A stretch of DNA of 64,000 nucleotides from a bacterium (GTDB taxonomy: Bacteria > Ratteibacteria > UBA8468 > B48-G9 > DTJG01): NCBI GenBank assembly GCA_021800535.1, contig JAJYYV010000001.1:1389-65388 (forward strand), read 5' to 3'. The translations under genes were made by a program, and so were the position numbers. The notes beneath the pieces were generated by a model that was not told the origin of the DNA, searched no databases, and saw nothing but the letters and a program-made list of their open reading frames with translations. Below, piece by piece: positions 25,990 through 52,647 of this stretch. The first letter of the stretch is position 1; every line of letters begins with the position of its first letter.

Positions 25990-26041
25990 GATATGTCATT
26001 GGGTATGGACTCCTGAATCCTGGATAAGATGGATAAATGTT

Positions 26042-27243: not shown

Positions 27244-27446
27244 CGCATTCACAACCAATCCGAACCGCAGGAGAAATAGTCACCATAATCCGAATAGAAT
27301 CTACAAGTTTATTGCCGGTATATAGACAGATTGCTCAAAAAGCAACCCAATTACATCTTTTAGGAATGAATGCCTCAGAAATTGCCAGACGCCTTTATGT
27401 TGACCGCAGAACCGTTTGTAAATCCCTTAGAGTTTAATCCTTTCGC

Positions 27447-29089: not shown

Positions 29090-29165
29090 ACCAATAGTTT
29101 ATCATAAAAACAGAAAAATTTAATTAAATTTGACGGATTTTTGGGTCTGTTCAATTAAGATTACT

Positions 29166-33013: not shown

Positions 33014-33037
33014 TTTTGCACATCCTTATTTTTTTTA

Positions 33038-33223
33038 TCAATTTTTGACTAATTCCTTACTCATTTCACTCCAAAGAGGGCATTCATATATTTTTGAAAC
33101 TCCAGCTCCAAGAAAAAGAATAATATTATCTTCTTTAGCCGCCAGATGAAGTTCTTTAAAATCGTCTTTCTGAAATTGCAATAAACGTTCAATTTTATCT
33201 ATAGAAACATTTCCATTCTCCAT
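33038..33223 (-). pseudogene. N-terminal remnant (~61 aa) of a third SIR2-like gene
   Basis: MENGNVSIDKIERLLQ...NIILFLGAGVSKIYECPLWSEMSKELVKN* carries the GAGVS nucleotide-binding loop but stops before the TTNYD core. It lies between the MTase stop and the intact SIR2 start. Confidence 0.55.
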
Positions 33224-33224
33224 A

Positions 33225-36869: not shown

Positions 36870-36890
36870 TCTAAATCCTTCTGTAATCTT

Positions 36891-39800: not shown

Positions 39801-40049
39801 TAATTTCTGTTTATATTGCAACTCAGGTTCAAATAAATCTGGTTGTAAAGCACATTCATCCGTATAAATTCCCAGAAGTAGTCGGAAATGTTCAGTTTTC
39901 AGAAGAGATTCTTTAACAAGACTGAAACCAGCAACGTTAAAATAGGCTGTAGCAACTGATAAAGTTTTCTGTTCATTAATGATTTTGTTTAACTCATCAA
40001 AAAGTTTCAGTTTTTCATTATCAATAACCAGATTTTCAGGTCGATACAT
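36891..40049 (-). CDS. PLD-family nuclease domain fused to an SNF2-family helicase (DrmC+DrmD-like fusion)
   Basis: N-terminal single HKD motif HGKAYIFEKLAIVGSSNFT. SNF2 motifs: Walker A VADSVGLGKTW, DEAH-box VIDESHNFRN, motif III LLLTATPMNN, C-terminal HELICc SEGQNLQ and QRAGRIDRIGS. Confidence 0.75.
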   Translation of the reverse strand: MYRPENLVIDNEKLKLFDELNKIINEQKTLSVATAYFNVAGFSLVKESLLKTEHFRLLLGIYTDECALQPDLFEPELQYKQKLRKDIEDEDFHHNIKDTVIKLISFLKQSSVEVKLYKKSFLHGKAYIFEKLAIVGSSNFTFAGFTSNTELNAVLDEAHSRYIKEEWFEKLWTEATDFKQELITILDASKFGTKEYLPYHIFIKSLYELQKDDILFDYETPEEMPSTEVDLANFQEDAVKRIYSRLKTYNGVLVADSVGLGKTWIAKKIIEDFGFYRRRRFVVICPASVDETLWRPALKDIGVSENILHQEELGSENIDFDFMEKEIGFKLEDVALFVIDESHNFRNPFSNRYENLFTLIEKASGKTAPKILLLTATPMNNTHWDLYFQLMLIARNDKRIFAKEGIFNLENQFKKADKGDIAQLSDILQSIAIRRTRQYIKANYPDAKYKDINGIWISIKFPYRKLNEINYSLDETYQGLYHKIADKVEKELTLAYYRLEEYKTAGEKDVLAMGRMKALGGILQTILLKRLESSVEAFRKSIQSQIKFLKKFEEFFKQGKVLKKKFYDKYISYLEGDLDDNSYIFETIGKYLESINISEYNGTAFMNDIKKDISIFEELFCLVNPIDISKDAKLVELKNTLIKLKNKGKILLFSFYADTIDYLYNALNDKNDEQFQKDFGKRIECVTGSFPMLKRKEIINDFLESDIDVLLSTDILSEGQNLQKAGICINYDLHWNPVRMIQRAGRIDRIGSSFEEINIYNFYPEKELESLLELVRILEKKINLINETVGLDASVLGEIINPKVFGIIRNLRRDEQTKEKVLQNLEEEQFGGGENFWQPLKDFGLDKLKEFCEELPHGIQSGLVRDLKGIFFYYKYDEDYHLWYLYDIMQKKIITNKTEILNYISCKPNEPRIIPDGIDVFQIHEEVKKEIQKFFSANLVATQIRTAHGRMEKTLAEMRDELDYIRENYLEQNDPLKNSITDIVERLHNVALTKKRMQEIRRIWRVYKNTKNWQVFITEIMSFLKQKPVTEQIEQIEFDEKKLTLISVDFIS

Positions 40050-40082
40050 TTTGTTGAAATCTCCTTTAACAAAATATTATTA

Positions 40083-41192
40083 TTATTTTATGTCAAGAAA
40101 TTTTACAATGGAATCTTCATAATCAGTAACATTATTGGTAAAAGATTTATCTATACAAAGAAAATTTTTTTTGTAATAGGAAAACAACGTTTTGTATATG
40201 TTTGTTGCTCGGGGATCTATTATTGCAACTTTTAGTTGATTCCTCAATCGTAAAGCACTCTTTAAAAATGTTATGGTAATATAATCTCTGAAAGAATATC
40301 CTATAAAAATGATATATTGAGTATTATAAAAGCATTGTTGAAGATAAGAATATGCAGTAATAAATGGGTCAAAAATAATTTCTTTAGTATTATTGGGATA
40401 CAAAATAACAGGTTTTATCCTATGGTCGGTTGGAAAATTTGTGGCGATAGGAGAATAAACTATGCTTCCTTGATCATTATACCAAAAAATTGAACCATGT
40501 AATTTAAAAAAACATATTTTTAAAATTTTTCCTGCAGATTTTAATTCATCAAACGATGAATAGGTCCATTGCATTCTTCTATATTTATTTTTGTATTCAA
40601 AACCATCTGTTAATTCGATTCCTTCTTCTATTTCGCAGAATTTTTCAATGGAACGATCATAATTGGTTGTAAAAATACTGATAATTTTTTTCTTTTCTGC
40701 AATAAGTTTTTTTTTAATGATATCAAAAAATGGTTTATATAAATTGTTCACTTTTTGTTCATCTACAGAGTAATAGGTTGTAAATATTTCTGAATATATT
40801 TTCCAGCGTAATGATAAACATTTATTACACAATAATTCATATTGAATTCCAAAATTAGATTCTGACGGTAATTGAGTTTCCGGTAAATTTGATAATAATG
40901 CACTGAGAGTGTTGCTCGGAGTTTTATCGAATAAATTTTTGAAGTAATTTCGTGGAGAAGGTCCTTTAAAATAATCTTTTTTACATATTTCATCTATTTC
41001 ATCTAATATAGTCTCTAAATCTTTTCCTTTCGTTTTGATAATAGTGTTGATTATTTCTTTCTCTTCCTGGTCCAGAAAAGTTTTATTAAGCAATATATCA
41101 ACAAATCCTTTCATTAAAGGTTTATCCAAAAAAGCAGATGCTCCAGCTCCTAAAAAAATCACTATTGGGGCGTTAATAATTTGTTTATTCAT
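40083..41192 (-). CDS. SIR2-like protein, SIR2_2/DUF4020-type
   Basis: VIFLGAGASAFL, IFTTNYDRSIE and KLHGSIFW motifs. Confidence 0.7.
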   Translation of the reverse strand: MNKQIINAPIVIFLGAGASAFLDKPLMKGFVDILLNKTFLDQEEKEIINTIIKTKGKDLETILDEIDEICKKDYFKGPSPRNYFKNLFDKTPSNTLSALLSNLPETQLPSESNFGIQYELLCNKCLSLRWKIYSEIFTTYYSVDEQKVNNLYKPFFDIIKKKLIAEKKKIISIFTTNYDRSIEKFCEIEEGIELTDGFEYKNKYRRMQWTYSSFDELKSAGKILKICFFKLHGSIFWYNDQGSIVYSPIATNFPTDHRIKPVILYPNNTKEIIFDPFITAYSYLQQCFYNTQYIIFIGYSFRDYITITFLKSALRLRNQLKVAIIDPRATNIYKTLFSYYKKNFLCIDKSFTNNVTDYEDSIVKFLDIK

Positions 41193-41201
41193 TTTCTCTT
41201 T

Positions 41202-41405
41202 TTATTCATCAATGAAATGACTGGCAGTTTTTTTTAAGACACCTGCTATTTTTATGAGTGTTTCCAGTGAAGGGATTACTTTGCCTGTTTCATAAAGTGA
41301 TAAGCTCTTCTGGTTAGTGTGAATTTTTTTTGCGAGTTCAGATTGCGTAAGGTCAAGTTCAACACGGGCTACTTTTATTTTTTTTCCCAGTTTTTTGGCA
41401 TCCAT
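41202..41405 (-). CDS. XRE-family HTH regulator (67 aa) heading the SIR2 / PLD-SNF2 / MTase array
   Basis: LDLTQSELAKKIHTNQKSLSLYETGKVIPSLETLIKIA is a canonical XRE HTH. 10-bp gap to the SIR2 gene. Confidence 0.65.
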   Translation of the reverse strand: MDAKKLGKKIKVARVELDLTQSELAKKIHTNQKSLSLYETGKVIPSLETLIKIAGVLKKTASHFIDE

Positions 41406-41539
41406 TTATACTCCTTAGAATTTATTAATAAAAAATATTTAGCAATATTGCTTCTATGGTATAAATATACCTTAAAGAGAATAAAATAACACCTATAAAG
41501 ATAAATATATAGCACTTTAGGAATAAAGTCAAAGAAAAA

Positions 41540-41840
41540 ATGAATGTCTTATTTGAAGAACAAATTGAAAAAAGAATAGAACAGGAACAAGATATGAAAC
41601 AATATTTAATTTATACGGATAATCCTGCGGTACAAAATTTTTTGGACACTGTGGCAAAAATTATTGCACAGGAATTTATAAAAATAGCAAAAGGAAATTC
41701 TTTTCCTTCACCTTTCAGGGAATGGATAAATCACCGTTTAGAGCGGTTACATGAGACTTTGAATAAAAATACTACCATGGCAGCGTCAGCTCTTAAAGAA
41801 TTGTTAGGAAATATAGAACTTGAATCCGTAACAGATGAAA
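41540..41840 (+). CDS. Hypothetical protein; 3' end uncertain because the longest ORF reads through the direct repeat and into the tRNA
   Basis: The ORF is 41540-42004 in the track, but its last ~55 codons are encoded by the 102-bp repeat and the tRNA gene. Only the first ~100 codons look like independent coding sequence. Confidence 0.3.
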
Positions 41841-41936
41841 TTTGTTATAAACCTTATTATAGAGCGCATACAAAAGTTCAGACTCTGGCACTTTTGGATA
41901 AGAGGCACACTGGTTCAAATTGGTTGCACTTGCGGA
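41835..41936. repeat. 102-bp direct repeat, copy B (partner of 27142-27243); abuts and overlaps the tRNA-Ser 3' end by 4 nt
   Basis: See copy A. Ends ...ttgcacttgcgga, where cgga (41933-41936) is the tRNA 3' terminus. Confidence 0.85.
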
Positions 41937-42015
41937 GGGTGAGGGATTTGAACCCCCATGTCCAAAAAGGACGGCGGATTTCAAGTCCGCTGACTTACCG
42001 TTAGCCTAACCCTCC
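41933..42015 (-). tRNA. tRNA-Ser (anticodon UGA), type II with long variable arm
   Basis: The minus strand reads GGAGGGT-TA-GGCTAACGGTAAGTC-A-GCGGA-CTTGAAA-TCCGC-CGTCCTTTTTGGACAT-GGGGG-TTCAAAT-CCCTC-ACCCTCC-G. This gives a 7-bp acceptor stem, anticodon loop CTTGAAA (anticodon TGA), a variable-arm hairpin GTCC/GGAC, T-loop TTCAAAT, and discriminator G. CCA is not encoded. Confidence 0.85.
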
Positions 42016-42067
42016 ATTTATTTTCTGTTAATTTTTTTTAATTATAACATTTTTTTTAATAGATTTG
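41978..42067. repeat. Perfect 90-bp direct repeat, copy 1: tRNA-Ser 5' half (nt 1 to ~37) plus 52 bp of upstream flank
   Basis: 100% identical to 51590-51679 by manual alignment, including both T8 runs. Confidence 0.9.
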
Positions 42068-42128
42068 TTGTCTTAATTGGATTTTTTCACTTGAGAATTC
42101 CCTGTTGGTTTGCCACAGTGAGATTCAT

Positions 42129-42494
42129 TTATGATAAATACTTCAGAATTCTATTTCTATCTTCGTTTTCTTTATCACCTTTGTAATAAATCTCAATCAA
42201 TTCGATTTTATCTTCACTTTCGTAATATGAATAAATTATTCTTATTCCTGAACCAGCGCCCTTTCCTTTTAAGGATTTACATGCAAATTTTTTTACCTTG
42301 TAAATCTTTGGGGTTTTAACGCCAAAACCCGGAACCGGAAAAACTCCTCTATTATCAATTTTTAGTTTGTGGTACAAATTCAATTCATTCTTGATAAAAA
42401 CATTTAAATCATCTTCAATTGTTCGGAATTTTTTTTTGATTTTTTTAATGTCATTTTCAAACTCCGGTAGCCGACAAATTTCTTTAAATAGCAC
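42129..42494 (-). CDS. RelE/ParE-superfamily toxin-like protein
   Basis: 121 aa. C-terminal GIRIIYSYYESEDKIELIEIYYKGDKEN resembles the RelE/ParE YRIIY...HRKDIY core. Overlaps by 11 nt the stop of the upstream antitoxin-like gene. Confidence 0.5.
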   Translation of the reverse strand: MLFKEICRLPEFENDIKKIKKKFRTIEDDLNVFIKNELNLYHKLKIDNRGVFPVPGFGVKTPKIYKVKKFACKSLKGKGAGSGIRIIYSYYESEDKIELIEIYYKGDKENEDRNRILKYLS

Positions 42495-43272
42495 CGTAAT
42501 CTCTCATTGAATAAAGTTCTGTTCTATAAAATACAGATTCATATTCTATAATTTCTCCTTCTTTTGCCGTAAGCCATGGAACATCGTTGTGAGAATAATC
42601 ACTGATTTGTTTTGCATTCATATCCGACAAACGATTCAATACATTATCTATTAATTCTATTTCACTGGCTTTCAATTTTGTTAAATCAGGTTTCCTTAAG
42701 GGAAGATATTTCGCTTGGGGATAATTGAAATATTTACTTTGAATCTTTTCGATTTCCTTTTTTTCAATCATTCTATCTATAACCTTTTTAAATTCTATTG
42801 GTGTGGGTCCATGATGATTCTTCTGATATGAAGCGCCAATCAATTGTTCTTCATATTTTTCGTAATAATCAAAATCTATAAAATAGAGTAATTTATAAAT
42901 GACTGTTTCGCCAATATTAGGTTTTGAACCAACCTTATTAAGGATATACAAAAATACTTCTTGAAATTTCACAAGATTTTTTTGCGGCATGTTAATTCTT
43001 ATTTGTGGTTCTAAGTCTTTTCCCCGCTCTTTTTCTTCAAGAATTACTTTTGGCTGTTTATCAGGATTTAATAGACTATCAATGGGCATGTTAAATACTT
43101 TTGAAATTTTTATTAATTCCTCTGTGTTAACCTTTCTTTCTCCATTTTCTATCTGGGAAATTGCAGGTCTGGAAATGCCAATAATTTTGGCAAGATGTTC
43201 TTGCCGGATACCATTAAGTTCTCGTAATTTTTTTATTCTTTTTCCAAGATTCATTGCGATTGCCTCCATCAA
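42484..43272 (-). CDS. XRE-HTH plus Panacea (DUF4065)-domain antitoxin-like protein
   Basis: N-terminal HTH LGKRIKKLRELNGIRQEHLAKIIGISRPAISQIENGE. C-terminal VIYKLLYFIDFDYYEKYEEQLIGASYQKNHHGPTP matches the Panacea/SocA-like KLLYF...G.PL...Y....GPV signature. Confidence 0.55.
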   Translation of the reverse strand: MMEAIAMNLGKRIKKLRELNGIRQEHLAKIIGISRPAISQIENGERKVNTEELIKISKVFNMPIDSLLNPDKQPKVILEEKERGKDLEPQIRINMPQKNLVKFQEVFLYILNKVGSKPNIGETVIYKLLYFIDFDYYEKYEEQLIGASYQKNHHGPTPIEFKKVIDRMIEKKEIEKIQSKYFNYPQAKYLPLRKPDLTKLKASEIELIDNVLNRLSDMNAKQISDYSHNDVPWLTAKEGEIIEYESVFYRTELYSMRDYGAI

Positions 43273-43531
43273 AATTATTCAAACCATAATAATTATACCT
43301 AATGTTATATTTTCTGTCAAATTATTGTTGGATTATCTTACAAATCACCATAAAAGGTTTTTCGTAGAATTGCTTATTAAGAGACATACAATATGTAAAC
43401 TATGTGTTCGGAATATACCCTGTAAATTGATGAGGGATTGTGCTAAAATTTGCAGAATTGCATCCTTGACTCGCGCTCTACATATTCTTTGAAAAGCGAC
43501 TGCCTGTATGGGAAAAACAGGCGAAGTGGTG

Positions 43532-43570
43532 AATCTCCATGTCCAAAAAGGACGGAGGATTTCAAGTTCT
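43532..43570. repeat. Degenerate fragment of tRNA-Ser (variable arm plus anticodon stem-loop), same orientation as the intact gene
   Basis: ccatgtccaaaaaggacggAggatttcaagtTc differs from 41958-41990 by 2 mismatches over 33 nt. Flanking sequence is unrelated. Confidence 0.7.
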
Positions 43571-44047
43571 GAAAATATAACTTTAACCGGGAGTTTTCTC
43601 ATAGAATCATCTCTATAAATCCATTGAATAGCAAGGCTTTACATATCTTCATCAAAATTTATGATTTTTAATATAAAGACTATTTTTCGATGAATTCTGT
43701 CATACATTTTCCTGTCCGCTGTCTATTTGAAAACCTCAATAAAATTACGGCTTTTGACGGGTAATGGTAAACGAGAAAAAAGAAAAGCCGAGACATAAAT
43801 CGGCAATTTTAAGATTTTTGGCATTCTTTTGGCACTCTTTTTTTCTTGAAAATTCAGTAGGAAAATTATGAGATTCAGATAACGATAGTATTTTCAACCA
43901 GAATTCCTTTTTCCTTCATTATAGCTTGAGGTTAGGTTGACGGGTTGAATAAAAAAGAGCATACTATTTAAACATAAGGTATGAAAAAACAAAAATACTA
44001 TAGAGATGTTAATATTAATTTCATATTAACTGAATAAGAGGTGCGAT

Positions 44048-44248
44048 ATGACAAAAAAAAGAATATACGGTATTTACCCAAAGGATGAAGATAAATTCGC
44101 CAATGAGTATATTGCTGTTGTTGGGAATAAAATAGTATCGCATGGAAAAGAACCTGCGGAAGTGTTGAAAACGGCAAAGCAGATAGATAAAAATCCAGTG
44201 CTTACGAAAGTTCCTACTCGGGGCTGGCGGGAACAAATGATTCTATGA
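44048..44248 (+). CDS. Small hypothetical protein (66 aa)
   Basis: ORF with GAGG-like RBS (aagaggtgcgatATG). No motif recognised. Confidence 0.3.
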   Translation: MTKKRIYGIYPKDEDKFANEYIAVVGNKIVSHGKEPAEVLKTAKQIDKNPVLTKVPTRGWREQMIL

Positions 44249-44417
44249 CGGAAATCAAATTCAAGGGAAGAGAAGTTACTGTCAGGGGAATTGGTATGAA
44301 ATGGATTCCTTTGGCTCAGGTGAGAATAAGCAACGGGCTGAAGCAATTTTTTCAAAAATTTACATCTCAATTTTTTCTCTCAACCAAAGTGATAAAATAT
44401 TAAAAAAGAGAATCTCT

Positions 44418-45191
44418 ATGAAATTCTATACAATAGGCTACGGTAACAGAAAATCTGAAGAATTTTTGAATCTCATGAAAGAAAAAGATATAAAAGCAGT
44501 GGTTGATGTCCGTCTTCGATCGGATCATGCTCATTTGAGATGTTATGCAAAGGCAAAATATCCAGACAAAGGTATTGAATCTTTGTTAAAATCTGCCGGC
44601 GTTGGATATTTCCATCTTGTTGAATTGGGAAATATCTTCCTTGATTATGAAGACTGGGCTGATAGATATAAACAACTTCTTAAACTTGCAGGAGACTTAC
44701 TTATCCGGAAACTTGACCAAATTCCAACACCATTTTGTCTGTTATGTGCAGAAAAATATGTTGCTGAATGTCATCGTGGATTGATTGCAGAATATTTAGA
44801 AGAAAAAGGGTATACAACAGAACATCTCGGAGAAACCAATGAGTTTCCAGAAAAGAGGGAGAGAAGGACAATATCTCGTACTTATATCACCAGTATAAAA
44901 CATTATCTTGATGAAACAGGGGATATCGCTGAAGAAGTATTGATTTCGACTCCTGCATATAAAATGGCTATTTTTTTAACAGATATTGTTAATGCATCTA
45001 CACGAAAATTCCCGGCAAATGAAATCTTAACTACGGTCCAATGTAAACGTAGAGAGTGTCATGGTGATATTATAGTATGGTCTACCGACATCCAAAAAGA
45101 CATAAAATGGGAATGCGAGGAATGCGGAGATAATGGCTCCATCAATAACTGGCAAGGTACTAAGTGGGACAACACAAAAAAATTTGCTTAA
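44418..45191 (+). CDS. DUF488-family protein with C-terminal Cys-rich (zinc-ribbon-like) extension
   Basis: Start at MKFYTIGYGNRKSEEFLNLMKEKDIKAVVDVR, the characteristic DUF488 N-terminus. The C-terminus carries CKRRECHGD...WECEECGDNG. The longer ORF starting at 44301 is probably not used. Confidence 0.55.
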   Translation: MKFYTIGYGNRKSEEFLNLMKEKDIKAVVDVRLRSDHAHLRCYAKAKYPDKGIESLLKSAGVGYFHLVELGNIFLDYEDWADRYKQLLKLAGDLLIRKLDQIPTPFCLLCAEKYVAECHRGLIAEYLEEKGYTTEHLGETNEFPEKRERRTISRTYITSIKHYLDETGDIAEEVLISTPAYKMAIFLTDIVNASTRKFPANEILTTVQCKRRECHGDIIVWSTDIQKDIKWECEECGDNGSINNWQGTKWDNTKKFA

Positions 45192-45532
45192 ACACCGTGA
45201 AAAGCTGAACTCCTAAGGGTTTCCCCACTGGATTTTAAGTTCCACAATTATCAATTTTAACCGAGACTTTCTCCTGCTCTTAATTTCTGAAACCCATTGT
45301 CAATCAACGTTTTTCACAAGCGCTTAAGAAATGACAAATTTGTACAGAGAGCAGAAAAAACCACAGGTTTCTGGCACACATACGGCACACTTTTTCAGTC
45401 CACTCAACCCTTTAAAAATTAGATTTTTCCCGACTTGTTCAAGTCAAATTTCATAAAAATATAAGCATATGAATATCAATTAATTACAAATTAAAAAATA
45501 CACATTTGTCGCACTAACGGTAAAATATAGGT

Positions 45533-46321
45533 ATGTTTTATATCCGTACCGTTAAGACGGCTTCAAATTCTATAGCAGTGCAAGTAATCCGTTATCAAGA
45601 TAGAAAAAGGATTATAGTTAAGCACATAGGAAGTGCTCATAATGCAGAAGAAGTTTTATATTTAAAACAAACAGCAAATAAATGGATTGAAGAAATAACA
45701 AAACAAAAAAGTCTTTTCCCTTACAATGGAAAAGAAAAAACAAACCTTGTTGCAACTAATAAACTGAGAAATCTTGGGTTTAGATATACTTTTGCCTACG
45801 AAACAATCAGCAACCTTTTCCATTTTTTTCAATTTACAGGATTAGGAAATCAATTATTTTTAGATTTGGGTATAATACGCATTATCCAACCTGCATCCAA
45901 GATAGAATCTTTAAGGTTACTTTATGAGTTATTTGGAATTGTGCACAAAAGAACAGAATTATATCGTAGTATTCCTACCATTATTTCTTTAAAAGAAGAC
46001 ATTGAAAATAAAATTATAGCTGTTGCCCAAAAACATTTTGCTTTTGATTTTAGTATTGTATTTTATGATGTAACAACATTGTATTTTGAAACATTTAAAT
46101 CAGACCAAGATACACAGCAGGGAATAGGATTACGTAAAAAGGGATTTTCTAAAGATAACAAAATAAATCAACCTCAAATTGTCATAGGATTAATTGTAAC
46201 TTCTGAAGGATTTCCTGTAAGTTATGATATTTTTGAGGGAAATATTTTTGAAGGTAAAACTTTTCCACCATATTTTGCAGTAAATTTTTCATGGGTTTTG
46301 GCTTGTTGTGTTCTTTCCTGA
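45533..46321 (+). mobile_element. Truncated IS1634-family (IS4 superfamily) transposase gene; N-terminal ~245 aa only, so a pseudogene
   Basis: N-terminus MFYIRTVKTASNSIAVQVIRYQDRKRIIVKHIGSAH and internal YDIFEGNIFEGKTF (similar to PLSYEVFPGNTNDSKTL) match IS1634 transposases. The reading frame ends in unrelated sequence at the point where the opposite-strand REase gene begins. A full-length protein would be ~550 aa. Confidence 0.6.
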
Positions 46322-46791
46322 TAAATTTGTGTAATGTGGGAAACACCGCCGGCTGGTTTAATTTGCAATCCTATAAATTTATCTTTAATTTTTATGAAAA
46401 AGTCAACATTATATAATCTATCCCATTCATCCGGCGCTGGTTCTATCTTGACTTTAAGAATTTCTTGCAATTGGCCGTAAATTGTTTTTCTTTCTGTTTC
46501 ATACCCGTCAAAAGTTCTTTTGATAACAAGATTGATTATGAAATCTATACAATCTTGTTCTGTTACACTTTCAATCTCAGCCTGCAATATTTCTGTGATT
46601 TTCATAAATAATTTTCTTCCAAGGTCTATAAGGTGTTCTTTTGACCTGACATTGGCATAATAATATTTTCCCCAGTCTTCCATTGTTTTCGGGGAACATT
46701 TTCTTATTTCTTCTGCAACTTTTCCAACATTTCTTGAGAAATTTAACTGAAATCTATTTGTTGCACTATTCAAAATCCATTCCTTAGCCAT
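46222..46791 (-). CDS. Putative type II restriction endonuclease (PD-(D/E)xK-like), partner of the adjacent MTase
   Basis: 189 aa. 8-nt overlap with the upstream MTase gene. Candidate catalytic stretch YNVDFFIKIKDKFIGLQIK (D...QxK). Confidence 0.4.
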   Translation of the reverse strand: MAKEWILNSATNRFQLNFSRNVGKVAEEIRKCSPKTMEDWGKYYYANVRSKEHLIDLGRKLFMKITEILQAEIESVTEQDCIDFIINLVIKRTFDGYETERKTIYGQLQEILKVKIEPAPDEWDRLYNVDFFIKIKDKFIGLQIKPAGGVSHITQIYQERTQQAKTHEKFTAKYGGKVLPSKIFPSKIS

Positions 46792-48031
46792 ATCTTACTC
46801 CTGTCATTAATTTTTCAAAGGTATCTTTATATTTAAAGTTATACTTCGGAATGTTCGCCATCTTTTGTTTAATCAGTTCTTTATTTATAAAAATCTTGTT
46901 TTTGAGAAATACATAAGCAGGCATTACATTTTCATTTGGTTCAAATAAGGAATCAAATTTTAAGAATACCTGTTTACCTCTAACATATTCTTCAAGATAA
47001 TCTATAATCTTTTTTGATTGTTGTGGAATGCTGCTTACACCAAGAAATTTTACTTTAAGTCCTGTATCCAATTCAATGGTTTCTTCGTTTAAAATGTTTA
47101 TTACTTTGTATAACCGTTCTTTATCAAATTTGAATTTATCCGGGGAAATAATTGGTTTTGCATCTTTAATATTGGGAGTATAATCTATGTCATTTTCTAT
47201 TGAAATTGGATTATTTTGTTTTATTATTTCTGCTTTATGATTTAAGCTAAACAAGGTTCCATTCAGTCCTATTTTATTTTTTATGATAGGCAGAAATTTT
47301 TCATTTATTTCATAGCCTATGGAGTTCCGGTCTAAATTTAAAGCAGATTTAATGGTTGTACCGCTTCCTAGGAATGGGTCCAATACAGTATCTCCAACAA
47401 ATGAGAACATTTTAATTAATCTTTTTGGTAATTCTTCAGGGAACATTGCTTCATGTCCAACCTGTCTTTCTCCATTAAAGTTCCAATGTCCTGAGAAATA
47501 TTCTTTCCATTCTTCTTTGGTTAATTTTGATTTTTCTTTGGATACTTTAGAAGGTACAGTTTTCCCTGGTTTTTTGAAAATCAAAATAAATTCATAGTCT
47601 ATTTCCACTAGGCCATTAGGCGGATATGGATATGAACCCATTACACTTGCGCCACCTGTAGTGTTCATTGTTGTTTTTTTCTGCCATATTATAGAACCCA
47701 TATAATCAAATCCGATTTTTTCACATTGTGTTATAAATTCCGAGTGAAGGGGGGCTATTTTATATCTTCCGTAAATTATGCTTCTTAGAAACTGGTCGCC
47801 TGTATTTATGCATAATCTTGTTCCGGGTTTTAAAGTTCTGAAGCATTCTTTCCAGGCGAGAAATAAATCTTTAAGATATTCATGCAGAGATTGTCCATAT
47901 CCTATTTGGCCTTCAACACCATAATCCTTGATATCCCAATATGGAGGGGATGTTATAACTAAATCTACACTTTCATTTTTAATTTCAAGCATTCTTCTGC
48001 TATCACCAATTATTACTTTTGTGCTGACCAT
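46784..48031 (-). CDS. Beta-class DNA methyltransferase (N6-adenine or N4-cytosine) with C-terminal SNase/thermonuclease-like domain
   Basis: Motif IV VDLVITSPPYWD comes before motif I VLDPFLGSGTT, which defines the beta class. The C-terminal ~130 aa (LKVKFLGVSSIPQ...GKQVFLKFD...NVMPAYVFLKNKIFINKELIKQKMA) resemble the SNase fold VRLIGIDAPE...GK.V.L..D...DRYGRLLAYVYLDG..VNEELVRQGLA. Confidence 0.75.
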   Translation of the reverse strand: MVSTKVIIGDSRRMLEIKNESVDLVITSPPYWDIKDYGVEGQIGYGQSLHEYLKDLFLAWKECFRTLKPGTRLCINTGDQFLRSIIYGRYKIAPLHSEFITQCEKIGFDYMGSIIWQKKTTMNTTGGASVMGSYPYPPNGLVEIDYEFILIFKKPGKTVPSKVSKEKSKLTKEEWKEYFSGHWNFNGERQVGHEAMFPEELPKRLIKMFSFVGDTVLDPFLGSGTTIKSALNLDRNSIGYEINEKFLPIIKNKIGLNGTLFSLNHKAEIIKQNNPISIENDIDYTPNIKDAKPIISPDKFKFDKERLYKVINILNEETIELDTGLKVKFLGVSSIPQQSKKIIDYLEEYVRGKQVFLKFDSLFEPNENVMPAYVFLKNKIFINKELIKQKMANIPKYNFKYKDTFEKLMTGVRYG

Positions 48032-48267
48032 TACAATACCTGATTTATTTCTTTAATGGATTTTGCTTTAATAAATTTTTCTATTTAATTTTAACATTTT
48101 AAAAAGATTAGTGGAAATAAAATATAGTAAACTTCCTATTACTTGATATATTTTTACTTTGCAGAAGGTGGTAAAATTTTAAGTTACAGATGAAATTTTA
48201 TTGGATATTAATTAATAATAGATGATATAATTAATTCATTCTGTAAAAATTAAAACAGGAGATTTTT

Positions 48268-48942
48268 ATGGCTTTTTTAAATTCTTCTTTTTTTGTCGGA
48301 TTAACAACTTTCTTAGTTGCAATAACCGGTATGAGTGCTATATGGATTTATAAAAAGCAACAAAAAGATAGAAAAATGCAGGCAGCACGAGTTTTATTAA
48401 TGGAAATAAGAACCGCTGAGGAAAGGATTGAACAAATCAGAGATATATTATTAAAATTATTGCGTCCACCGGGTGTAAAAATAGTTGAAGTACCTGAATT
48501 CCCTATGGTTTTTCCAACTAAAAGCTGGAAAACTTATTCTTCTCTTTTTGTTAGCGACTTTGATCATGACGAATTTAAGTTGATAAGTTCATTCTACGAT
48601 TATGGTGAATTAATTGAAGATTTTGCTCGAAGAAATAATAATTTTTTCTGGATTACTACTGAAGAAAGAGCTCGGGTTACTCAACAAACAATTGCGGGCA
48701 CTATTGAAAAAGCATTTGATAAATTTAAAAATGATACTGAACAGGATATTGATAAACAACAAAATAAATATATTACTGAACATATAGATTTTATTTCGAA
48801 AAAATTAGATCAGTTTACTATTCCTTATGTACCAATAAGAACAATATCTGAGATTGATTCATATCTGAAGAAAATTCAAACTATAACAACATCAAGTTGT
48901 GGCATAAAATTAAAACGTATAGCAAAACTTGACAATTTATAA
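48268..48942 (+). CDS. Hypothetical protein with N-terminal TM helix
   Basis: N-terminus FFVGLTTFLVAITGMSAIWIY is a TM segment; the rest is soluble and charged. RBS AGGAG upstream. First gene of a four-gene plus-strand operon. Confidence 0.45.
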   Translation: MAFLNSSFFVGLTTFLVAITGMSAIWIYKKQQKDRKMQAARVLLMEIRTAEERIEQIRDILLKLLRPPGVKIVEVPEFPMVFPTKSWKTYSSLFVSDFDHDEFKLISSFYDYGELIEDFARRNNNFFWITTEERARVTQQTIAGTIEKAFDKFKNDTEQDIDKQQNKYITEHIDFISKKLDQFTIPYVPIRTISEIDSYLKKIQTITTSSCGIKLKRIAKLDNL

Positions 48943-48990
48943 TATAAAAATTTATGGAAATTTTTTGAAAAATTTGCTATAATTCATAAT

Positions 48991-50019
48991 ATGGATAGAG
49001 AAAAACTTATAAAGCAAATAGAAAATATTCGTAAATCCCGGGTAATAACTTATCTTACCAGTGATCGACAGGGGCCAATTAGTGCACGGATTGCTATGGA
49101 TGTCATTCCTTTAATTAGTAAACATCTTAGAATGATTGGTAAAACCGAAAATATAGATTTGTTTTTATATAGTGCAGGTGGCGATACAATGGTTCCCTGG
49201 CGTTTAGTATCAATGATGCGGGAATATTGTGATAAGTTTTCAGTCCTTATTCCATATAAAGCTCATAGTGCGGCAACAATGATTTCTCTTGGCGCAGATG
49301 AGATTGTTATGAGTGATCTTTCAGAGATTTCGCCTATTGATCCTTCAACTGCTAATATTTTCAATCCTCAGGACCCACATAACCCACAAAACAAAATTCC
49401 TATAAGTGTTGAAGATGTTATGGCTTATTTTGATCTGGCAAAAAATAAATTTGGCATAAAAAATGACGAGGACTTGGCAAGGGTTTTTAATAAATTTGTT
49501 GAGTCAAATCCACAAATCCATCCTTTGGCTTTAGGTAATATCAATCGTACGCATAACTTAATTCGTATTTTAGCCAAACGTCTTTTGAAAAGTCATAAAT
49601 TACCATTAAAAGAGGATGAAATTGAAAAAATTGTTGATTATTTCACGGAAAAATTATATTCGCACCAATACTTCATTGGTAGAAAAGAAGCCAAAGAAGA
49701 TTTAGGAGTTACAACCATTCAATATGCAGACAATATCTTATCTAAAGCAATGACTGATTTATATGAGGAGTACAAAGAAGAAATGGGATTGGGAATAAAT
49801 ATTTGGAATCCGGAGAATGAACTTGGAGTTAATGCTGTGCAGAATAGAAAAACCTATAAAATAGCTTTTATTGAAAGTGTCCAGTTATCAAACTTTTTTG
49901 AATCAATAATTGATTATAGAAAACAACAAGTTAATATTGTTCAACAAACCCCTCAAGGTCCAATTCAAGTACCGCAGGAACAGGTTGGGTTTAAAATTGT
50001 TGGACAAGGATGGAAATAA
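48991..50019 (+). CDS. SDH-family Clp-fold serine proteinase (S49-like)
   Basis: ITYLTSDRQGPISARIAMDV...LFLYSAGGDTMVPWRLVSMMREY...AHSAATMISLGADEIVMS...SPIDP follows the ClpP/crotonase-fold serine peptidase pattern. Confidence 0.6.
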   Translation: MDREKLIKQIENIRKSRVITYLTSDRQGPISARIAMDVIPLISKHLRMIGKTENIDLFLYSAGGDTMVPWRLVSMMREYCDKFSVLIPYKAHSAATMISLGADEIVMSDLSEISPIDPSTANIFNPQDPHNPQNKIPISVEDVMAYFDLAKNKFGIKNDEDLARVFNKFVESNPQIHPLALGNINRTHNLIRILAKRLLKSHKLPLKEDEIEKIVDYFTEKLYSHQYFIGRKEAKEDLGVTTIQYADNILSKAMTDLYEEYKEEMGLGINIWNPENELGVNAVQNRKTYKIAFIESVQLSNFFESIIDYRKQQVNIVQQTPQGPIQVPQEQVGFKIVGQGWK

Positions 50020-50023
50020 TACT

Positions 50024-50677
50024 ATGGATATAATTCAAAAACAATTGGCATTCTTCTTTAGAGATAGTTTTAAAGGAAGTTTTGAAGAACTGTCTCTAAA
50101 TATCAAAAAGAAACTTGGAGATAGTGAATCAACTCAATATATACCAATTTTCCCAAACGCCCCCTTAGAAATTCCTAGACTGGTTTTACGTTATAAAGAT
50201 TACGCTCTAAATCTTTCTATAAATAGAGCAGATATTTTAGTTACTAATGTTACTACATTAGATCATATGAAATCTGTGATAGATGATTTAATGACAGTTC
50301 TGACGGATACTTATAAAATCAATATTAATCGTATAGGATTCGTACAAAAAAGTTTTTTTGAATCTAATATAGGAAAATTACTTGATTTGATCGTAGAGAA
50401 AGAAAAATATAGCTCGGCGAAGGAACTAAGTATTAGAATAAATTTTCCTAAAGAAATAAATAAGTATTCCTGTAACAACATTGAGTCGTTAAATTTTGTT
50501 CTGGCGAATAAACTTGAAAATGGCAAGCAAGTCTCAGTACCGGGTATTCTTATAGAAAGAGATATGAACACTCTACCTGAAAAATGTTCGGAATATTTAT
50601 TTACCAAGGAAAATATACATGATCTTATTTCTGAAATAGCAAAAGAAATTAAGGATTCAATTCTATTAAAATTATAA
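50024..50677 (+). CDS. Hypothetical protein (217 aa)
   Basis: Start chosen at MDIIQKQ, 4 nt after the previous stop. The track ORF starts earlier at 49910 inside the previous gene. No motifs recognised. Confidence 0.4.
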   Translation: MDIIQKQLAFFFRDSFKGSFEELSLNIKKKLGDSESTQYIPIFPNAPLEIPRLVLRYKDYALNLSINRADILVTNVTTLDHMKSVIDDLMTVLTDTYKININRIGFVQKSFFESNIGKLLDLIVEKEKYSSAKELSIRINFPKEINKYSCNNIESLNFVLANKLENGKQVSVPGILIERDMNTLPEKCSEYLFTKENIHDLISEIAKEIKDSILLKL

Positions 50678-51180
50678 TGAGTATAGAGATTAAATCACCT
50701 AAAAGTTCGACAGGAGACACTAAAGTAGATGTTTCAAAGGGATACAAGATTGACGATGGTTATATATTACCCGAAAATCTTTCTGCAGAGGTTTACAATA
50801 AAATTATAATAGAAGTTTTAAATAAGGTCGTTGATGAAGAAAATAAACTTCAAAATAGACTTGCAAATATTGATGATAAAATAGAAAGACAAACCTCAAG
50901 AAACATTGAAATAATTGGTATTTTTTCATCTATTCTTGCATTATTAATTATTGATGTAAGTATTATTAAGTCTGTGACCTCTTTTCTATCGGCTATACTG
51001 TTAATTGTTTCTTTGGCCATAGTTTTATCAATTTTTGCGATATTGATTCATATGTTATTTGTTCCTGAAGATAAAGCAAAATTATCACGATGGAGTATTT
51101 GGTTGCCTATTATACTTTTAGCGATACTAATACTTCTCGGTATCATTGCAGAGATTAATAGATGGCCATGGTCTCACTGA
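50677..51180 (+). CDS. Hypothetical membrane protein (167 aa, 2-3 TM helices)
   Basis: ATGA overlap with the previous gene. Hydrophobic stretches IIGIFSSILALLIIDV, LSAILLIVSLAIVLSIFAILI and LPIILLAILILLGIIA. Confidence 0.45.
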   Translation: MSIEIKSPKSSTGDTKVDVSKGYKIDDGYILPENLSAEVYNKIIIEVLNKVVDEENKLQNRLANIDDKIERQTSRNIEIIGIFSSILALLIIDVSIIKSVTSFLSAILLIVSLAIVLSIFAILIHMLFVPEDKAKLSRWSIWLPIILLAILILLGIIAEINRWPWSH

Positions 51181-51589
51181 AACATAAAGGGGAAAAAGGA
51201 AAAATTAAAATATTATTTTTGGTCATGATTATACATTCTATTTTCTGAAATATATAGCCGTGTTTAAAAATATCAATTTTTTTATCTTTATTTTTGTTGA
51301 GTTTTTTAAAATTTAAATATTTTCACTACAAATAAAATAAATTTTGTTGGCATACTTTTTATCTCTTTTTTTATCAATTACCAGCTCTGTCAGAAACCTT
51401 TATTTTCCCTGCGTGTTTAAAAGTGCGGCGGACATATAACGGACATTAAAAGTATGACAGAAATTTCCAGAAATTGAGTTTTTCAGGTTTTAATACAAAA
51501 TATTCAAAAAATCTGGAAAGCGTTGTCTGACAAGGGTTTTTGGAGATAAAACAGGAAGAAAACCTCAGGTTAAATTTGCTTTTATAAGA

Positions 51590-51679
51590 ATTTCAAGTCC
51601 GCTGACTTACCGTTAGCCTAACCCTCCATTTATTTTCTGTTAATTTTTTTTAATTATAACATTTTTTTTAATAGATTTG
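51590..51679. repeat. Perfect 90-bp direct repeat, copy 2 (partial tRNA-Ser 5' half plus upstream flank), lacking the tRNA 3' half
   Basis: Identical to 41978-42067. Sequence to its left (tttataagaa...) is unrelated to the tRNA. Confidence 0.9.
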
Positions 51680-51808
51680 ATAGAAATGCATATATTAAAG
51701 ATTCATTTTTCTTGATAATTTGAATATAACCTAAAATATCTGTGGTTTTGTTCTATTATAAATAGTATGATATAGTATGATATTATAAAATAAAGGAGAG
51801 TGATAAAA

Positions 51809-51901
51809 ATGACGAAATGTGCAGGAAAAACAAAAGAAGGAAAAAGATGCAAAAATAATGCTGTTGGTAAATCGAAATTTTGCAAGACACATAAAAAATA
51901 A
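51809..51901 (+). CDS. Small 30-aa Cys-rich (C-C-C-H) protein, candidate zinc-knuckle micro-protein
   Basis: ATG sits 8 nt after AAGGAGAG. Translation MTKCAGKTKEGKRCKNNAVGKSKFCKTHKK. It is preceded by a tandem 10-mer atagtatgat x2 and a TATTAT box. Confidence 0.4.
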   Translation: MTKCAGKTKEGKRCKNNAVGKSKFCKTHKK

Positions 51902-52200
51902 GTAATATTTACCAACATACATAGGGAAAAAAAGATTTATAAAAAATTCATTAACTTCTATTATGGTTTTTTGTTGTGTCAAAAATAAATTTATGTGGAG
52001 TATTATTCAAGCAGTAATACCAGATATGTTTTCCCAAACAAGGGGAGAAGTGTTGTAGTAAACACGGGAAAATCTCAAAATCCGCGTCTATCAAACCTTT
52101 CTAAATTTGGCAGATAAGTTAACTTGACAAATTTTTTATTTTATTATATACTTTGATTATCAAACTATTTGATAGTTTAATTATTCGCCAGGTAAATTAA

Positions 52201-52647
52201 ATGAAAAACAAAAAAAAAGAATGTGCACAGATTTTATTGGAGGTTATGCCTCAGATATGGCGTGTTATGAAAGAGGTGGCTCAAAAAAAAGAATTTTCTA
52301 AATTTTCTGTGGCACAATTCAGAACACTTAAATTTATAAACAGAAATAACAAGGTGTCTCTTTCTGAAATATCCAAACATCTTGGGCCAGGACTTTCTTC
52401 TACATCAAAATTAATAGATGGCCTTGTAGAAAAAAAACTGATAAAAAGACAGATAAATGAAAAAGACAGAAGATATATAACAATAACACTTACAAAAACC
52501 GGTAAAAATATAATGGAAAGAATACAAAAAGAAACCATTGAGCACCTGGAAAAAAGTATATCTGACTTATCAGATTCACAATATTCTTTGATAATAAATG
52601 CTATGGAAATATTAAAACAAAAATACATAAGCAAAGGTGAAAAATGA
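52201..52647 (+). CDS. MarR-family transcriptional regulator
   Basis: 148 aa. Winged-HTH region FSVAQFRTLKFINRNNKVSLSEISKHLGPGLSSTSKLIDGLVEKKLI. Confidence 0.7.
   Translation: MKNKKKECAQILLEVMPQIWRVMKEVAQKKEFSKFSVAQFRTLKFINRNNKVSLSEISKHLGPGLSSTSKLIDGLVEKKLIKRQINEKDRRYITITLTKTGKNIMERIQKETIEHLEKSISDLSDSQYSLIINAMEILKQKYISKGEK

Follow-up and report, generated by a model that had tools for sequence, protein, structure and literature searches.

Island B, which adjoins the tRNA-Ser gene of the 64-kb stretch of DNA analysed here (the window), is best read as an ordinary decayed tRNA hot-spot island and not as a new kind of integrase-free mobile element. The perfect 90-bp direct repeat that delimits it most plausibly represents what is left of the front half of another, wrecked tRNA-Ser locus. 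The locus consists of two tandem tRNA-Ser(UGA) units: unit 2 is intact and carries a 52-nt promoter stub, and unit 1 is dead. Island B itself is a stack of a TA module, the wrecked tRNA-Ser locus and one or two nested elements with terminal inverted repeats (TIRs), which carry DUF488, an IS1634 stump, a type II R-M system and an SDH-protease cluster. The initial annotation had described a single island of ~9.5 kb. Our analysis does not support that description, because the island boundary in the anticodon loop is the end of a separate insertion, B2.

A repeat search and blastn-short, with the letters read directly, bear out the earlier claim of perfect repeats: 41978-42067 and 51590-51679 are identical at 90/90 positions. 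ARAGORN calls one tRNA gene in the window, tRNA-Ser(tga) on the minus strand (41932-42015), which Rfam RF00005 places at 41933-42015 with 57.3 bits. This gene is 98.8-98.9% identical to tRNAs of relatives L019 and L025. Copy 1 is, as first described, the tRNA 5' half plus 52 bp of upstream sequence, and the repeat starts one base pair outside the anticodon loop.

41933-42015, minus strand: intact tRNA-Ser(UGA), unit 2 (ARAGORN, Rfam), with its 5' end at 42015 and its anticodon loop at 41979-41985
41978-42067, no strand: repeat copy 1, which joins 52 nt of upstream flank (42016-42067) to tRNA nt 1-38 (running from 42015 to 41978)
51590-51679, no strand: repeat copy 2, from the wrecked unit 1, with its orphan promoter and its tRNA nt 1-38 (51590-51627)

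The upstream part of copy 1 contains an extended -10-like element, TGTTATAAT (42041-42049, minus strand), which from its sequence is probably the tRNA promoter motif. Within the window the 90-mer is not a multi-copy repeat, with just two copies, and chance would not be expected to yield a perfect 90-bp match in 64 kb of DNA at 31% GC. The same searches returned three significant duplicates of the tRNA locus in the window and none beyond these: the 90-bp repeat, a copy of tRNA nt 30-67 inside island B (43530-43567, 92%) and a 102-nt duplicate (27142-27243, similar to 41835-41936, 97%).

The remaining parts of unit 1 lie at 43355-43567. Copy 2 had been said to have no tRNA 3' half, which is correct locally, but the rest of the tRNA is found 8 kb away inside the island, as nt 30-67, a filler, a decayed 3' end and the native downstream flank.

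43530-43567, minus strand: tRNA nt 30-67 of unit 1, with three GC->AT changes
43440-43529, no strand: 90-nt filler that interrupts unit 1 in the T-loop
43429-43439, minus strand: decayed tRNA 3' end, GATGAGGGATT, corresponding to nt 68-76 and the acceptor strand, with a 5-7-nt deletion
43355-43428, minus strand: clade-typical tRNA-Ser downstream flank of unit 1 (alignment A3, with the native flanks of L025 and L019)
43568-51589, no strand: B2, 8,022 bp inserted into the unit 1 anticodon loop, with a 9-bp direct repeat at both ends

Unit 1 is broken twice, by the filler in its T-loop and by the 8.0-kb B2 in its anticodon loop. In tRNA genes, these loops are the two classical sites of recombination. 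Once B2 and one 9-mer are taken out, unit 1 can be aligned to unit 2 across 119 nt, from the promoter (position -52) to the T-loop, and all three mismatches (GC->AT) fall in nt 39-67. Taking out the filler as well extends the alignment of unit 1 to tRNA nt 1-76; ARAGORN then calls no tRNA. The three changes are absent from both L019 and L025 and so represent decay, not a foreign allele. Because B2 interrupts unit 1, the 90-bp repeat is the part of at least 119 bp of inter-unit homology that lies upstream of the B2 insertion point. The downstream flanks at 43355-43428 and 27094-27141 are far more diverged from each other than is the 119-bp core, and the relic's flank is closer to that of lineage L025 than to the resident flank. 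The 90-nt filler has no significant similarity to anything else examined. A T-loop scar is also present in L019, as a 26-nt direct repeat around a 133-nt filler.

The anticodon loop had been proposed as the site of a crossover. It is instead one end of B2, a separate TIR-bounded insertion flanked by its own 9-bp direct repeat, ATTTCAAGT (43559-43567 and 51590-51598, the anticodon loop +/-1).

43568-43700, plus strand: a-end, the left TIR of B2 (local alignment, alignment A2)
45232-45375, plus strand: b-end, a third, internal end copy, with the O-like 9-mer ATTTTAAGT before it (45232-45240)
51456-51589, minus strand: c-end, the right TIR, homologous to the b-end over ~135 nt (A2, nhmmer)

The TIR of B2 has a local alignment score of 27 against a shuffle maximum of 25, and its same-offset inverted-repeat match was equalled by 4/20000 random position pairs. 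By nhmmer, the window holds exactly three end copies (a, b and c) and the fetched loci hold no others. The b-end appears to mark the boundary of a nested or tandem element, which would divide B2 into E1 (43568-45231) and E2 (45241-51589); no matching right end was found upstream of it.

B2 has imperfect TIRs and a 9-bp direct repeat, in keeping with the TIRs and fixed-length target duplication of a DDE transposon. A cognate transposase was found neither between its ends nor in trans; the only transposase is the IS1634-family stump, which has a different end, and none of the searches turned up a recombinase or transposase that would serve the TIR elements. In its imperfect TIRs (~30-135 nt) and 9-bp repeat, B2 resembles the IS4/Tn5/Tn10-like TIR transposons, with their 9-bp duplications and non-autonomous cargo derivatives, and its extra internal end suggests nesting, as in TIR-bounded transposons and their cargo derivatives. 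Unlike those elements, B2 has no transposase save the unrelated IS1634 stump, from whose family its ends differ, and its flanking 9-mer is conserved between copies (ATTTCAAGT, ATTTTAAGT), as in a site-specific element. We know of no other members of the B2-end family. One could envision that the a, b and c ends define an undescribed family of recombinase-less TIR elements, moved in trans, that target ATTTYAAGT in anticodon loops, and that recombination between the tRNA-side junction of an integrated copy and the resident tRNA-Ser captured adjoining chromosomal DNA, namely the TA module and the tRNA relic. We regard this scenario as improbable. If true, defence cargo could accrete upstream of tRNA genes as a 5'-type, promoter-carrying island without an island-borne integrase.

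The cargo agrees with the initial annotation, which listed TA, R-M and unknown genes together with an IS remnant, here assigned to the IS1634 family. The TA module, B1, sits between the two tRNA units and has a perfect TTGACA-17-TATAAT promoter (43320->43292).

42129-42494, minus strand: candidate toxin of module B1, a 121-aa unknown protein (Pfam, PHROGs and PADLOC for the module)
42484-43254, minus strand: HTH-SocA/Panacea antitoxin of module B1 (Pfam PF13274, 1.5e-19, and HTH_3; PHROGs, PADLOC)
44048-45191, plus strand: DUF5678 (66 aa) and DUF488 (296 aa), a candidate defence pair (Pfam; PADLOC PDC-M45/M19)
45429-46321, plus strand: IS1634-family stump (NCBIfam NF033559, 2.9e-37), right end missing
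46222-46791, minus strand: MjaI-like endonuclease of the type II R-M system (Pfam, PADLOC)
46784-48031, minus strand: N6/N4 methylase of the type II R-M system (Pfam, PADLOC)
48268-51180, plus strand: four-gene cluster of a 224-aa protein, a ClpP-like SDH protease (342 aa) and proteins of 217 and 167 aa (Pfam, NCBIfam, PHROGs)

The 224-, 217- and 167-aa proteins have no PDB sequence relatives. Island B had been described as free of recombinases, and this stands: profile searches for Phage_integrase, Resolvase and Recombinase (Pfam, NCBIfam, PHROGs, PADLOC) found none in ORFs of at least 50 aa, nor did six-frame translations of the intergenic DNA. The rest of the 64-kb window gave no such hit either. 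With no recombinase of its own, island B cannot at present move by itself. Its only built-in route of loss would be RecA-dependent recombination between the 90-bp copies, which would release a circle of 9.6 kb and leave behind a tRNA that is intact and has its promoter.

The IS1634-family transposase fragment inside the island raises the question of whether the 90 bp could be a long target-site duplication, made when an IS1634/IS1549-type transposase moved a composite transposon. IS1634 and IS1549 are reported to make long, variable direct repeats of 8-514 bp (PMC2266710), and island B likewise has a long repeat near such a transposase, but no IS end coincides with a repeat boundary. We rejected this candidate as very improbable. 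The left end of the stump, CCCGACTTGTTCAA (defined against the full copy L027), occurs once in the window, in mid-island at 45429-45442, and positions 42068 and 51589 have no IS end. Compared with each other, the two ends of the island show no inverted-repeat match above the random level (score 16), and the IS is a truncated stump, with a transposase that covers only N-terminal positions 2-197 of a 483-position model.

Candidate origins of the two tRNA units are Campbell-type or site-specific integration, or gene conversion. In the account that we prefer, and to which we give about an even chance, DNA carrying a tRNA-Ser locus and the TA module would have recombined Campbell-type into the resident tRNA-Ser, either by homology or site-specifically at the T-loop or anticodon loop, leaving two full tRNA units on either side of the TA module. 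The redundant unit may then have deteriorated as it acquired GC->AT changes, a deletion and the T-loop filler, before TIR elements with a preference for ATTTYAAGT inserted in its anticodon loop. Such an insertion would be tolerated without cell death because that unit was redundant. The 90-bp identity could reflect chance, as this segment offers few GC sites for mutation, and/or gene conversion at a later stage, restricted by the heterology of B2. The order of these events is inferred, not observed, because neither a single-unit genome nor one with an intact unit 1 was found among the available genomes and contigs, all of which are clonal.

Certain observations sit less easily with this Campbell-type account. 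It requires a source of circular DNA with a tRNA locus and the TA module, and the divergence of the two downstream flanks greatly exceeds that of the core. The TIR elements lack a known transposase and further end copies in the fetched loci. In addition, there are 0/90 mismatches in the repeat and 3/29 beyond the insertion, a contrast of marginal significance (p = 0.013 when scaled by length, 0.064 by GC sites). Together with two indels confined to the 3' part, it suggests that the 5' 90 bp may be younger than the rest; this would call for an extra step, such as gene conversion, or favour a later integration of the whole island. The initial annotation took the 100% identity as a sign of a recent event, which cannot be shown from clonal genomes and a marginal contrast.

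In a model that follows the initial annotation, island B (42068-51589 plus one repeat) is one cis-mobilizable, integrase-less element. A circle would have integrated by a site-specific crossover in the anticodon loop, through an attP with the promoter and tRNA nt 1-38 (5'-type); the integrase would have been lost or would act in trans, and a previous host would be the source of the TIR ends, the TA module and the tRNA relic inside the island, all carried along as baggage. In favour of this model, the repeat includes the likely promoter, as read from the sequence, so that the rebuilt tRNA would stay expressed. Both novel junctions are where it places them, the perfect 90 bp beside a decayed 3' relic fits a younger event, and the IS stump offers a possible route to integrase loss. 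We nevertheless consider the model unlikely. Its anticodon-loop boundary is explained by a TIR insertion end whose partner lies 8 kb away beside nt 30-67, and the resumption of tRNA homology straight after B2 would be a coincidence. The circle would hold a near-complete tRNA locus with both native flanks, which looks chromosomal and not like an attP. Since insertion of B2 destroys a tRNA-Ser, the donor would also need a spare gene. The scans and contigs searched showed neither an integrase nor a circular form, and neither an empty site nor a second copy.

Comparison with known island classes bears on the same model. Islands with a displaced 5' tDNA fragment exist and are the rarer configuration, 159/3919 in Islander (Hudson, Lau & Williams 2015, PMC4383910), in line with the earlier remark that the promoter-side geometry is less common. 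Island B shares with them an intact tRNA (41933-42015), a 5' fragment upstream of it in the same orientation (51590-51627), as the Islander configuration and orientation rules demand, an anticodon-loop boundary, accessory and defence cargo and a multi-layer hot spot. Unlike them, it contains no tyrosine integrase gene, and its fragment is not an attP-derived partial copy: the boundary was set by a separate TIR insertion, and the missing 3' part, decayed end and flank (43355-43567) complete a second whole, dead tRNA locus. Island B also resembles CIMEs and tandem accretion arrays (Pavlovic 2004; Bellanger 2011; reviewed in PMC5704250), and the Dehalococcoides ssrA islands without integration modules (PMC3146451), in its attL/attR-type repeats of the target gene, its lack of recombinase and conjugation genes and its place in a tandem decayed array. 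Unlike CIMEs, it has no integrase-bearing partner of the same att specificity that we could find in the 64 kb available from this clonal, uncultured species, its repeats are on the 5'/promoter side, and the tRNA-Ser array mixes at least three unrelated insertion chemistries: a large serine recombinase (LSR) at the 3' end, a T-loop event and an anticodon-loop TIR element.

Homology to L019, a related Omnitrophota MAG, crosses 51679/51680 and not 42067/42068 (alignment A4), so the DNA between the repeat copies is an insertion relative to that genome, as had been supposed. The 51679/51680 junction is ancestral because it is contiguous in L019, and 42067/42068 is novel because it has no counterpart there.

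51680-51725, no strand: ancestral upstream flank of the tRNA locus, conserved beside an up52-like sequence in L019 (A4)

The novel junction, which lacks homology, could also reflect capture without a recombinase. A linear or circular piece of a related chromosome, with a dead tRNA-Ser containing B2, its flank and the TA module, would have been taken up. Homologous recombination in the universally conserved tRNA 5' half would have anchored it at one side, and an illegitimate join would have formed 52 nt upstream. The copies would be identical because 90 bp of resident DNA was duplicated, and tRNA nt 1-39, identical even in distant GC-rich MAGs, would make a good homology anchor. The likeness of the relic's downstream flank to that of L025 fits this idea, as does the gene flow seen here: modules beside the tRNA match the Omnitrophota relative more closely (83-87% aa) than the core genes do (62-79%). 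Capture is quite unlikely in our view. Homology-facilitated illegitimate recombination usually deletes resident DNA and does not as a rule duplicate it. No donor was found, and the three relic changes are private GC->AT decay.

A chimeric join at the shared tRNA fragment was also considered, as the window matches metagenome-assembled contigs and short-k Logan contigs end exactly at the repeat edges. An assembly artefact has a near-negligible chance, because independent assemblies show the same arrangement at ~100% identity across several samples and pipelines: two ENA contigs with k=141, which exceeds the 90-bp repeat, a 197-kb JGI contig and NCBI MAG contigs. The 37 metagenomic contigs contained no empty attB, the site that the initial annotation had thought to look for, and no alternative context. 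Viral, genome and metagenome scans gave no matches except the relatives' tRNA genes.

The other side of the hot spot holds tandem remnants of LSR elements, an independent case of accretion and decay. Island A is probably a decayed LSR element, with its putative attP inside the recombinase's own coding region.

41540-41936, plus strand: LSR remnant, C-terminal region only, reading into the tRNA 3' end, with an attR-type junction at CGGA
27142-27437, plus strand: second copy of that recombinase gene, represented by its 3' end and containing an intact attP-like palindrome (27219-27266)

The 102-bp repeat (27142-27243/41835-41936) is the overlap of these two gene fragments. The LSR in the window covers the equivalent of the C-terminal 196 aa and lacks the catalytic domain; its homologues carry PF00239, PF07508 and PF13408 (Resolvase, Recombinase and Zn-ribbon). 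As for the palindromic att site, L057 carries a perfect 15-bp inverted repeat. Because the putative attP lies within the LSR's own ORF, integration would split the gene, as in the SSV-type 'suicidal' integrases (PMC8371274). Unlike those enzymes, the island A protein is a bacterial serine recombinase, not a tyrosine recombinase, and the part that would be swapped is a C-terminal HTH tail of ~64 aa, not the catalytic part.

The only tRNA gene of the window is a tRNA-Ser(UGA) on the minus strand (41932/41933-42015; ARAGORN; Rfam 57.3 bits), and an Rfam scan of 41000-52500 returned nothing besides it. The initial annotation described perfect 90-bp direct repeats carrying the 5' half of this gene, and these are borne out: 41978-42067 and 51590-51679 are identical at 90/90 positions. 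Copy 1 comprises tRNA nucleotides 1-38 and 52 nt of upstream sequence, and starts one base pair outside the anticodon loop (41979-41985). A sensitive self-search of the window recovered just two further significant duplicates of the tRNA locus. One (43530-43567) lies within island B, the DNA between the two repeat copies, and corresponds to tRNA nucleotides 30-67 at 92% identity. The other (27142-27243) matches 41835-41936 over 102 nt at 97% identity and covers the final 4-5 tRNA nucleotides plus 97 nt downstream. At ~100% identity, the same arrangement recurs in contigs from ENA (k=141) and from NCBI MAGs and in one JGI contig of 197 kb, which rules out an assembly artefact; short-k contigs end precisely at the repeat edges.

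We have high confidence that the structure of the locus is solved. Exactly 9 nt, ATTTCAAGT, are shared between the segment 43530-43567 and repeat copy 2, and these correspond to the anticodon loop with its closing pair. When 43568-51589 and one 9-mer are removed, 43530-43567 joined to 51599-51679 aligns gap-free to 41949-42067. Further leftward, a 90-nt filler (43440-43529) sits exactly between tRNA nucleotides 67 and 68, next to a decayed 3' end (GATGAGGGATT) whose acceptor strand has lost 5-7 nt, and ~70 nt homologous to the native tRNA-Ser downstream flank in two relatives, loci L025 and L019. Because all of these parts are found leftward of it, copy 2 is the front of a complete but wrecked tRNA-Ser locus, which we call unit 1. 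Unit 1 is interrupted twice, in the T-loop and in the anticodon loop, and its reconstructed sequence is no longer called as a tRNA. Its three substitutions are all GC to AT and are absent from the tRNAs of relatives, and thus reflect decay rather than a foreign allele. The TA module of island B lies between unit 1 and the intact gene with its 52-nt upstream stub (unit 2).

The anticodon-loop boundary of the 90-bp repeat belongs to a separate insertion, B2, which spans 8,022 bp (43568 to 51589) between the two copies of a 9-bp direct repeat. At equal offset from the boundary, the two ends of B2 form imperfect inverted repeats (TCTGAAAATAT-AACTTTAACCGGGAGTTTTC and TCTTATAAAAGCAAATTTAACCTGAGGTTTTC). 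Local alignment of end against end scores 27, compared with a shuffle maximum of 25, and the match was equalled by 4 of 20,000 random position pairs. A third end copy (45241-45375) lies inside B2, oriented like the left end and with ATTTTAAGT just before it; its match to the right end extends over ~135 nt. With nhmmer, the window and 18 comparison loci yielded three end copies of ~135 nt and no more (43568-43700, 45232-45375 and 51456-51589), two direct and one inverted, each beside an ATTTYAAGT 9-mer. Given the internal copy, B2 is probably two nested or tandem elements, E1 (43568-45231; DUF5678/DUF488) and E2 (45241-51589; IS stump, R-M and protease cluster). A search for a right-hand TIR upstream of the internal end gave nothing significant, and no recombinase is encoded near the three end copies. 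A degenerate TIR pattern matched viral contigs 18 times, none of the matches extending past ~20-28 nt, the chance level, and inverted-repeat scores at the ends of the whole of island B, of its TA module (B1) and of the neighbouring island A were at random level. The end copies may represent an undescribed family of site-preferring TIR elements. If so, recombinase-less elements with a conserved anticodon-loop target would be worth following up.

Cargo of island B, listed outward from the tRNA
Nearest the tRNA: TA-like pair of a 121-aa unknown protein and an HTH-SocA/Panacea antitoxin, with a perfect sigma-70 promoter
Next outward from the TA-like pair: DUF5678 and DUF488
Beyond DUF5678/DUF488: IS1634-family transposase, N-terminal 262 aa
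Beyond the IS stump: MjaI-like endonuclease and N6/N4 methylase
48268-51180, outermost: four-gene cluster around a ClpP-like SDH protease

Neither the ORFs of island B nor six-frame Pfam searches of its intergenic DNA gave any match to recombinase families or their remnants, and the claim that the island has no integrase therefore stands. The remainder of the window holds no recombinase save one serine-recombinase remnant. In the outermost cluster, the protease belongs to the ClpP-like SDH family, and the other three proteins have no Pfam, NCBIfam, PADLOC or PDB match; a PDB sequence search with these three returned no relatives. The location of the cluster within a defence island points to a defence system that is as yet uncharacterised.

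Comparison with a full-length IS copy in locus L027 places an IS terminus at 45429-45442 (CCCGACTTGTTCAA), a motif that occurs once in the window. The ends of B2 are not IS1634 ends. IS1634/IS1549 elements have been reported to generate long target duplications of 8-514 bp (PMC2266710). The reading of the 90 bp as such a duplication is rejected, as the IS end occurs only at 45429-45442 and is absent from the island ends. The L027 copy (ENA ERZ27237364 k141_78759) is an IS1634-family element 71% identical to the stump at the amino acid level, with ends CCTGACTTGTCCAA/TTGGACAAGTCAGG, and adjoins a MiaB/RimO-like gene. Its sample also contains the window's species, and an active relative of the stump may thus coexist with it.

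The nearest relative that we found is a Candidatus Omnitrophota MAG, in which six core proteins are 62-79% identical to those of the window and the tRNA-Ser is 98.8% identical. Its upstream region aligns across 51679/51680, not across 42067/42068, and the junction of copy 2 with the right flank is thus ancestral and that of B1 with copy 1 novel. The ancestral neighbourhood cannot be read from right-flank synteny, since in this MAG, from which locus L019 also comes, the closest MarR orthologue is not adjacent to tRNA-Ser. The window's own species is rare and clonal, all contigs being ~100% identical. No strain variation was seen: L026, L001 and L020 match at 100%, and at 90% identity the ten proteins of the window that were checked form clusters of 1-3 members, singleton or near-singleton. 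None of the 24 contigs with the right-flank MarR gene or of the 13 with the tRNA-overlapping ORF reveals an empty site, a circle or another context; each has the same arrangement or ends at the repeat. Plasmid and phage collections hold no near-identical DNA.

We give roughly an even chance to a history in which island B grew by accretion in a spare tRNA copy. DNA with a tRNA-Ser locus and the TA module would have recombined into the resident gene, giving the two-unit state. The redundant unit 1 would then have decayed and, being dispensable, taken up TIR elements that the sole functional tRNA-Ser(UGA) could not receive without lethal effect. Mismatches number 0/90 in the repeat against 3/29 in the rest (p = 0.013 by length, 0.064 counting GC sites alone). 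This contrast, along with two indels that both lie on the 3' side, hints that the 90 bp is younger than its surroundings. Within the accretion history, such an age difference would follow from gene conversion whose extent was limited by the B2 heterology. The age difference would also be accounted for by the initial annotation's model, in which a single 5'-type element brought in the whole block later. We consider this unlikely, as the dead tRNA and the separate insertion B2 argue against one island unit. The interpretation in the initial annotation is supported in part, the lack of a recombinase being among the points that hold. A recombinase-independent capture, in which foreign chromosomal DNA was taken in and resident sequence duplicated, would likewise make the 90 bp younger, and is in our judgement somewhat less likely still. 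Whatever its origin, the sole way out for island B at present is homologous recombination between the two 90-bp copies, which would leave one tRNA gene equipped with its own promoter stub. The 52-nt stub of unit 2 includes an extended -10 motif, TGTTATAAT (42041-42049), read off the sequence; it is a candidate for the tRNA's own promoter.

Displaced 5' tDNA fragments are a known minority among Islander islands (159/3919), for which two crossover sites are standard, one anticodon-centred and one in the T-stem (PMC4383910). Island B shares the configuration of these islands; however, it has no integrase, and its 5' fragment is not the attP-derived partial copy that would be expected. CIMEs are integrase-less islands with att repeats at their bounds that occur in tandem arrays and form by accretion and decay, and island B resembles them in having no recombination genes. 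On these grounds, it is a decayed composite island of a known kind at a tDNA hot spot, not a new integration mechanism, and the 90-bp repeat is the scar of ordinary accretion and decay, a verdict that would stand even if the TIR family and the island A recombinase described below were confirmed. The locus illustrates how a layered hot spot of defence islands builds up at one tRNA gene of an uncultured, Omnitrophota-like bacterium: at least three different insertion chemistries are stacked on the two sides of the gene, and a dead spare copy of the tRNA offers a safe landing site. It also cautions island-finding software that a tRNA 5' fragment and a perfect repeat need not by themselves delimit one element.

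The other side of the tRNA is occupied by island A. The ORF at 41540-41936 continues in frame at 27244-27437, and the fused product of 196 aa shows homology to the C-terminal part of large serine recombinases (LSRs); Resolvase, Recombinase and Zn-ribbon domains are found in some of its homologues. There are two classes of homologue (alignment A1): one reads "...NWLHWRT-RSQPIRT...HTH", as in the fused gene, and the other "...NWLHWRR-GxDSNPR", which is antisense tRNA. In loci L059 and L053 from other metagenomes, the LSR gene adjoins the tRNA-Ser 3' end at the same CGGA. The unsplit gene has a palindromic site within the ORF, with perfect 15-bp arms in L057 and a window version at 27219-27266. 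From the palindrome, the two homologue classes and the CGGA junctions, this LSR family appears to carry attP within its own 3' coding region. Integration at tRNA-Ser appears to exchange a ~64-aa C-terminal HTH tail for residues encoded by antisense tRNA. According to reviews, self-splitting recombinases are described only among archaeal tyrosine integrases (PMC8371274), and as of 2014 no serine recombinase was known to use a tRNA gene as its target (PMC4383910), although for both statements later literature was not exhaustively searched. A bacterial LSR acting on tRNA-Ser with attP in its own reading frame would, if confirmed, merit further study.

The 102-bp repeat of island A (mismatches at 27161, 27173 and 27188) is the overlap of two LSR gene fragments, not an att duplication. 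The left copy is an intact attP-like junction and the tRNA-side copy is attR, which together point to tandem LSR elements followed by a deletion that cut the older one to 102 bp. With tblastn, LSR matches were confined to 27132-27437 and 41528-41956, with none inside island B. The idea that the B1 end (42068-42135) is what remains of an LSR attP arm was rejected too, since its score of 14 lies below the mean of 16 for shuffled sequence. Public gene calls place a 154-aa "protein", P0015, over 41540-42004; it is the recombinase remnant read through the antisense tRNA into the 90-bp repeat, an annotation artefact of the attR junction. The cargo of island A (29166-41405) looks like a large defence cluster. 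It encodes a PLD-SNF2 helicase (1052 aa), an Eco57I/MmeI-like methylase (1214 aa), two SIR2_2 proteins, a 952-aa protein without family match and a small HTH protein.

The first 39 nt of the tRNA-Ser(UGA) (window 41978-42016) are shared without change by loci L018, L024, L019 and L025, from MAGs that include such distant ones as TA06-type genomes of 62-64% GC, and the 3' halves differ. Among ~185,000 species genomes, an exact 30-mer of the gene is present in only 2, and it also occurs in 2 records from metagenomes. The 5'-half pattern had no match in viral sequences and 2 genome and 2 metagenome matches, with a duplicated 5' half in none of them, the species' own genome lying outside both collections. 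At the tRNA-Ser of L019 in the Omnitrophota MAG (JAMDAS010000025.1, about 5011-5195), a GC-rich filler of 133 nt is enclosed by a 26-nt direct repeat made up of 7 nt of flank and the tRNA's 3' 19 nt from the T-loop, which is a scar of T-loop-type integration. L019 also has a 148-aa ORF between the tRNA and a promoter-like region.

In the Omnitrophota MAG, the immediate neighbours of the tRNA-Ser, one on each side, are homologues of two gene pairs of the window, HTH/M78 (26035-27122) and DUF4411/M78 (27708-29103). These modules are 83-87% identical at the amino acid level, against 62-79% for the core proteins, which indicates exchange at the tRNA-Ser locus and suggests that M78/DUF4411-type modules travel together with it. 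The window itself holds two paralogous M78-peptidase/DUF4411-type modules (25868-26042 versus 27813-27987; 26042-27093 and 27447-29089), one of which has shrunk to a 175-nt DUF4411 remnant.
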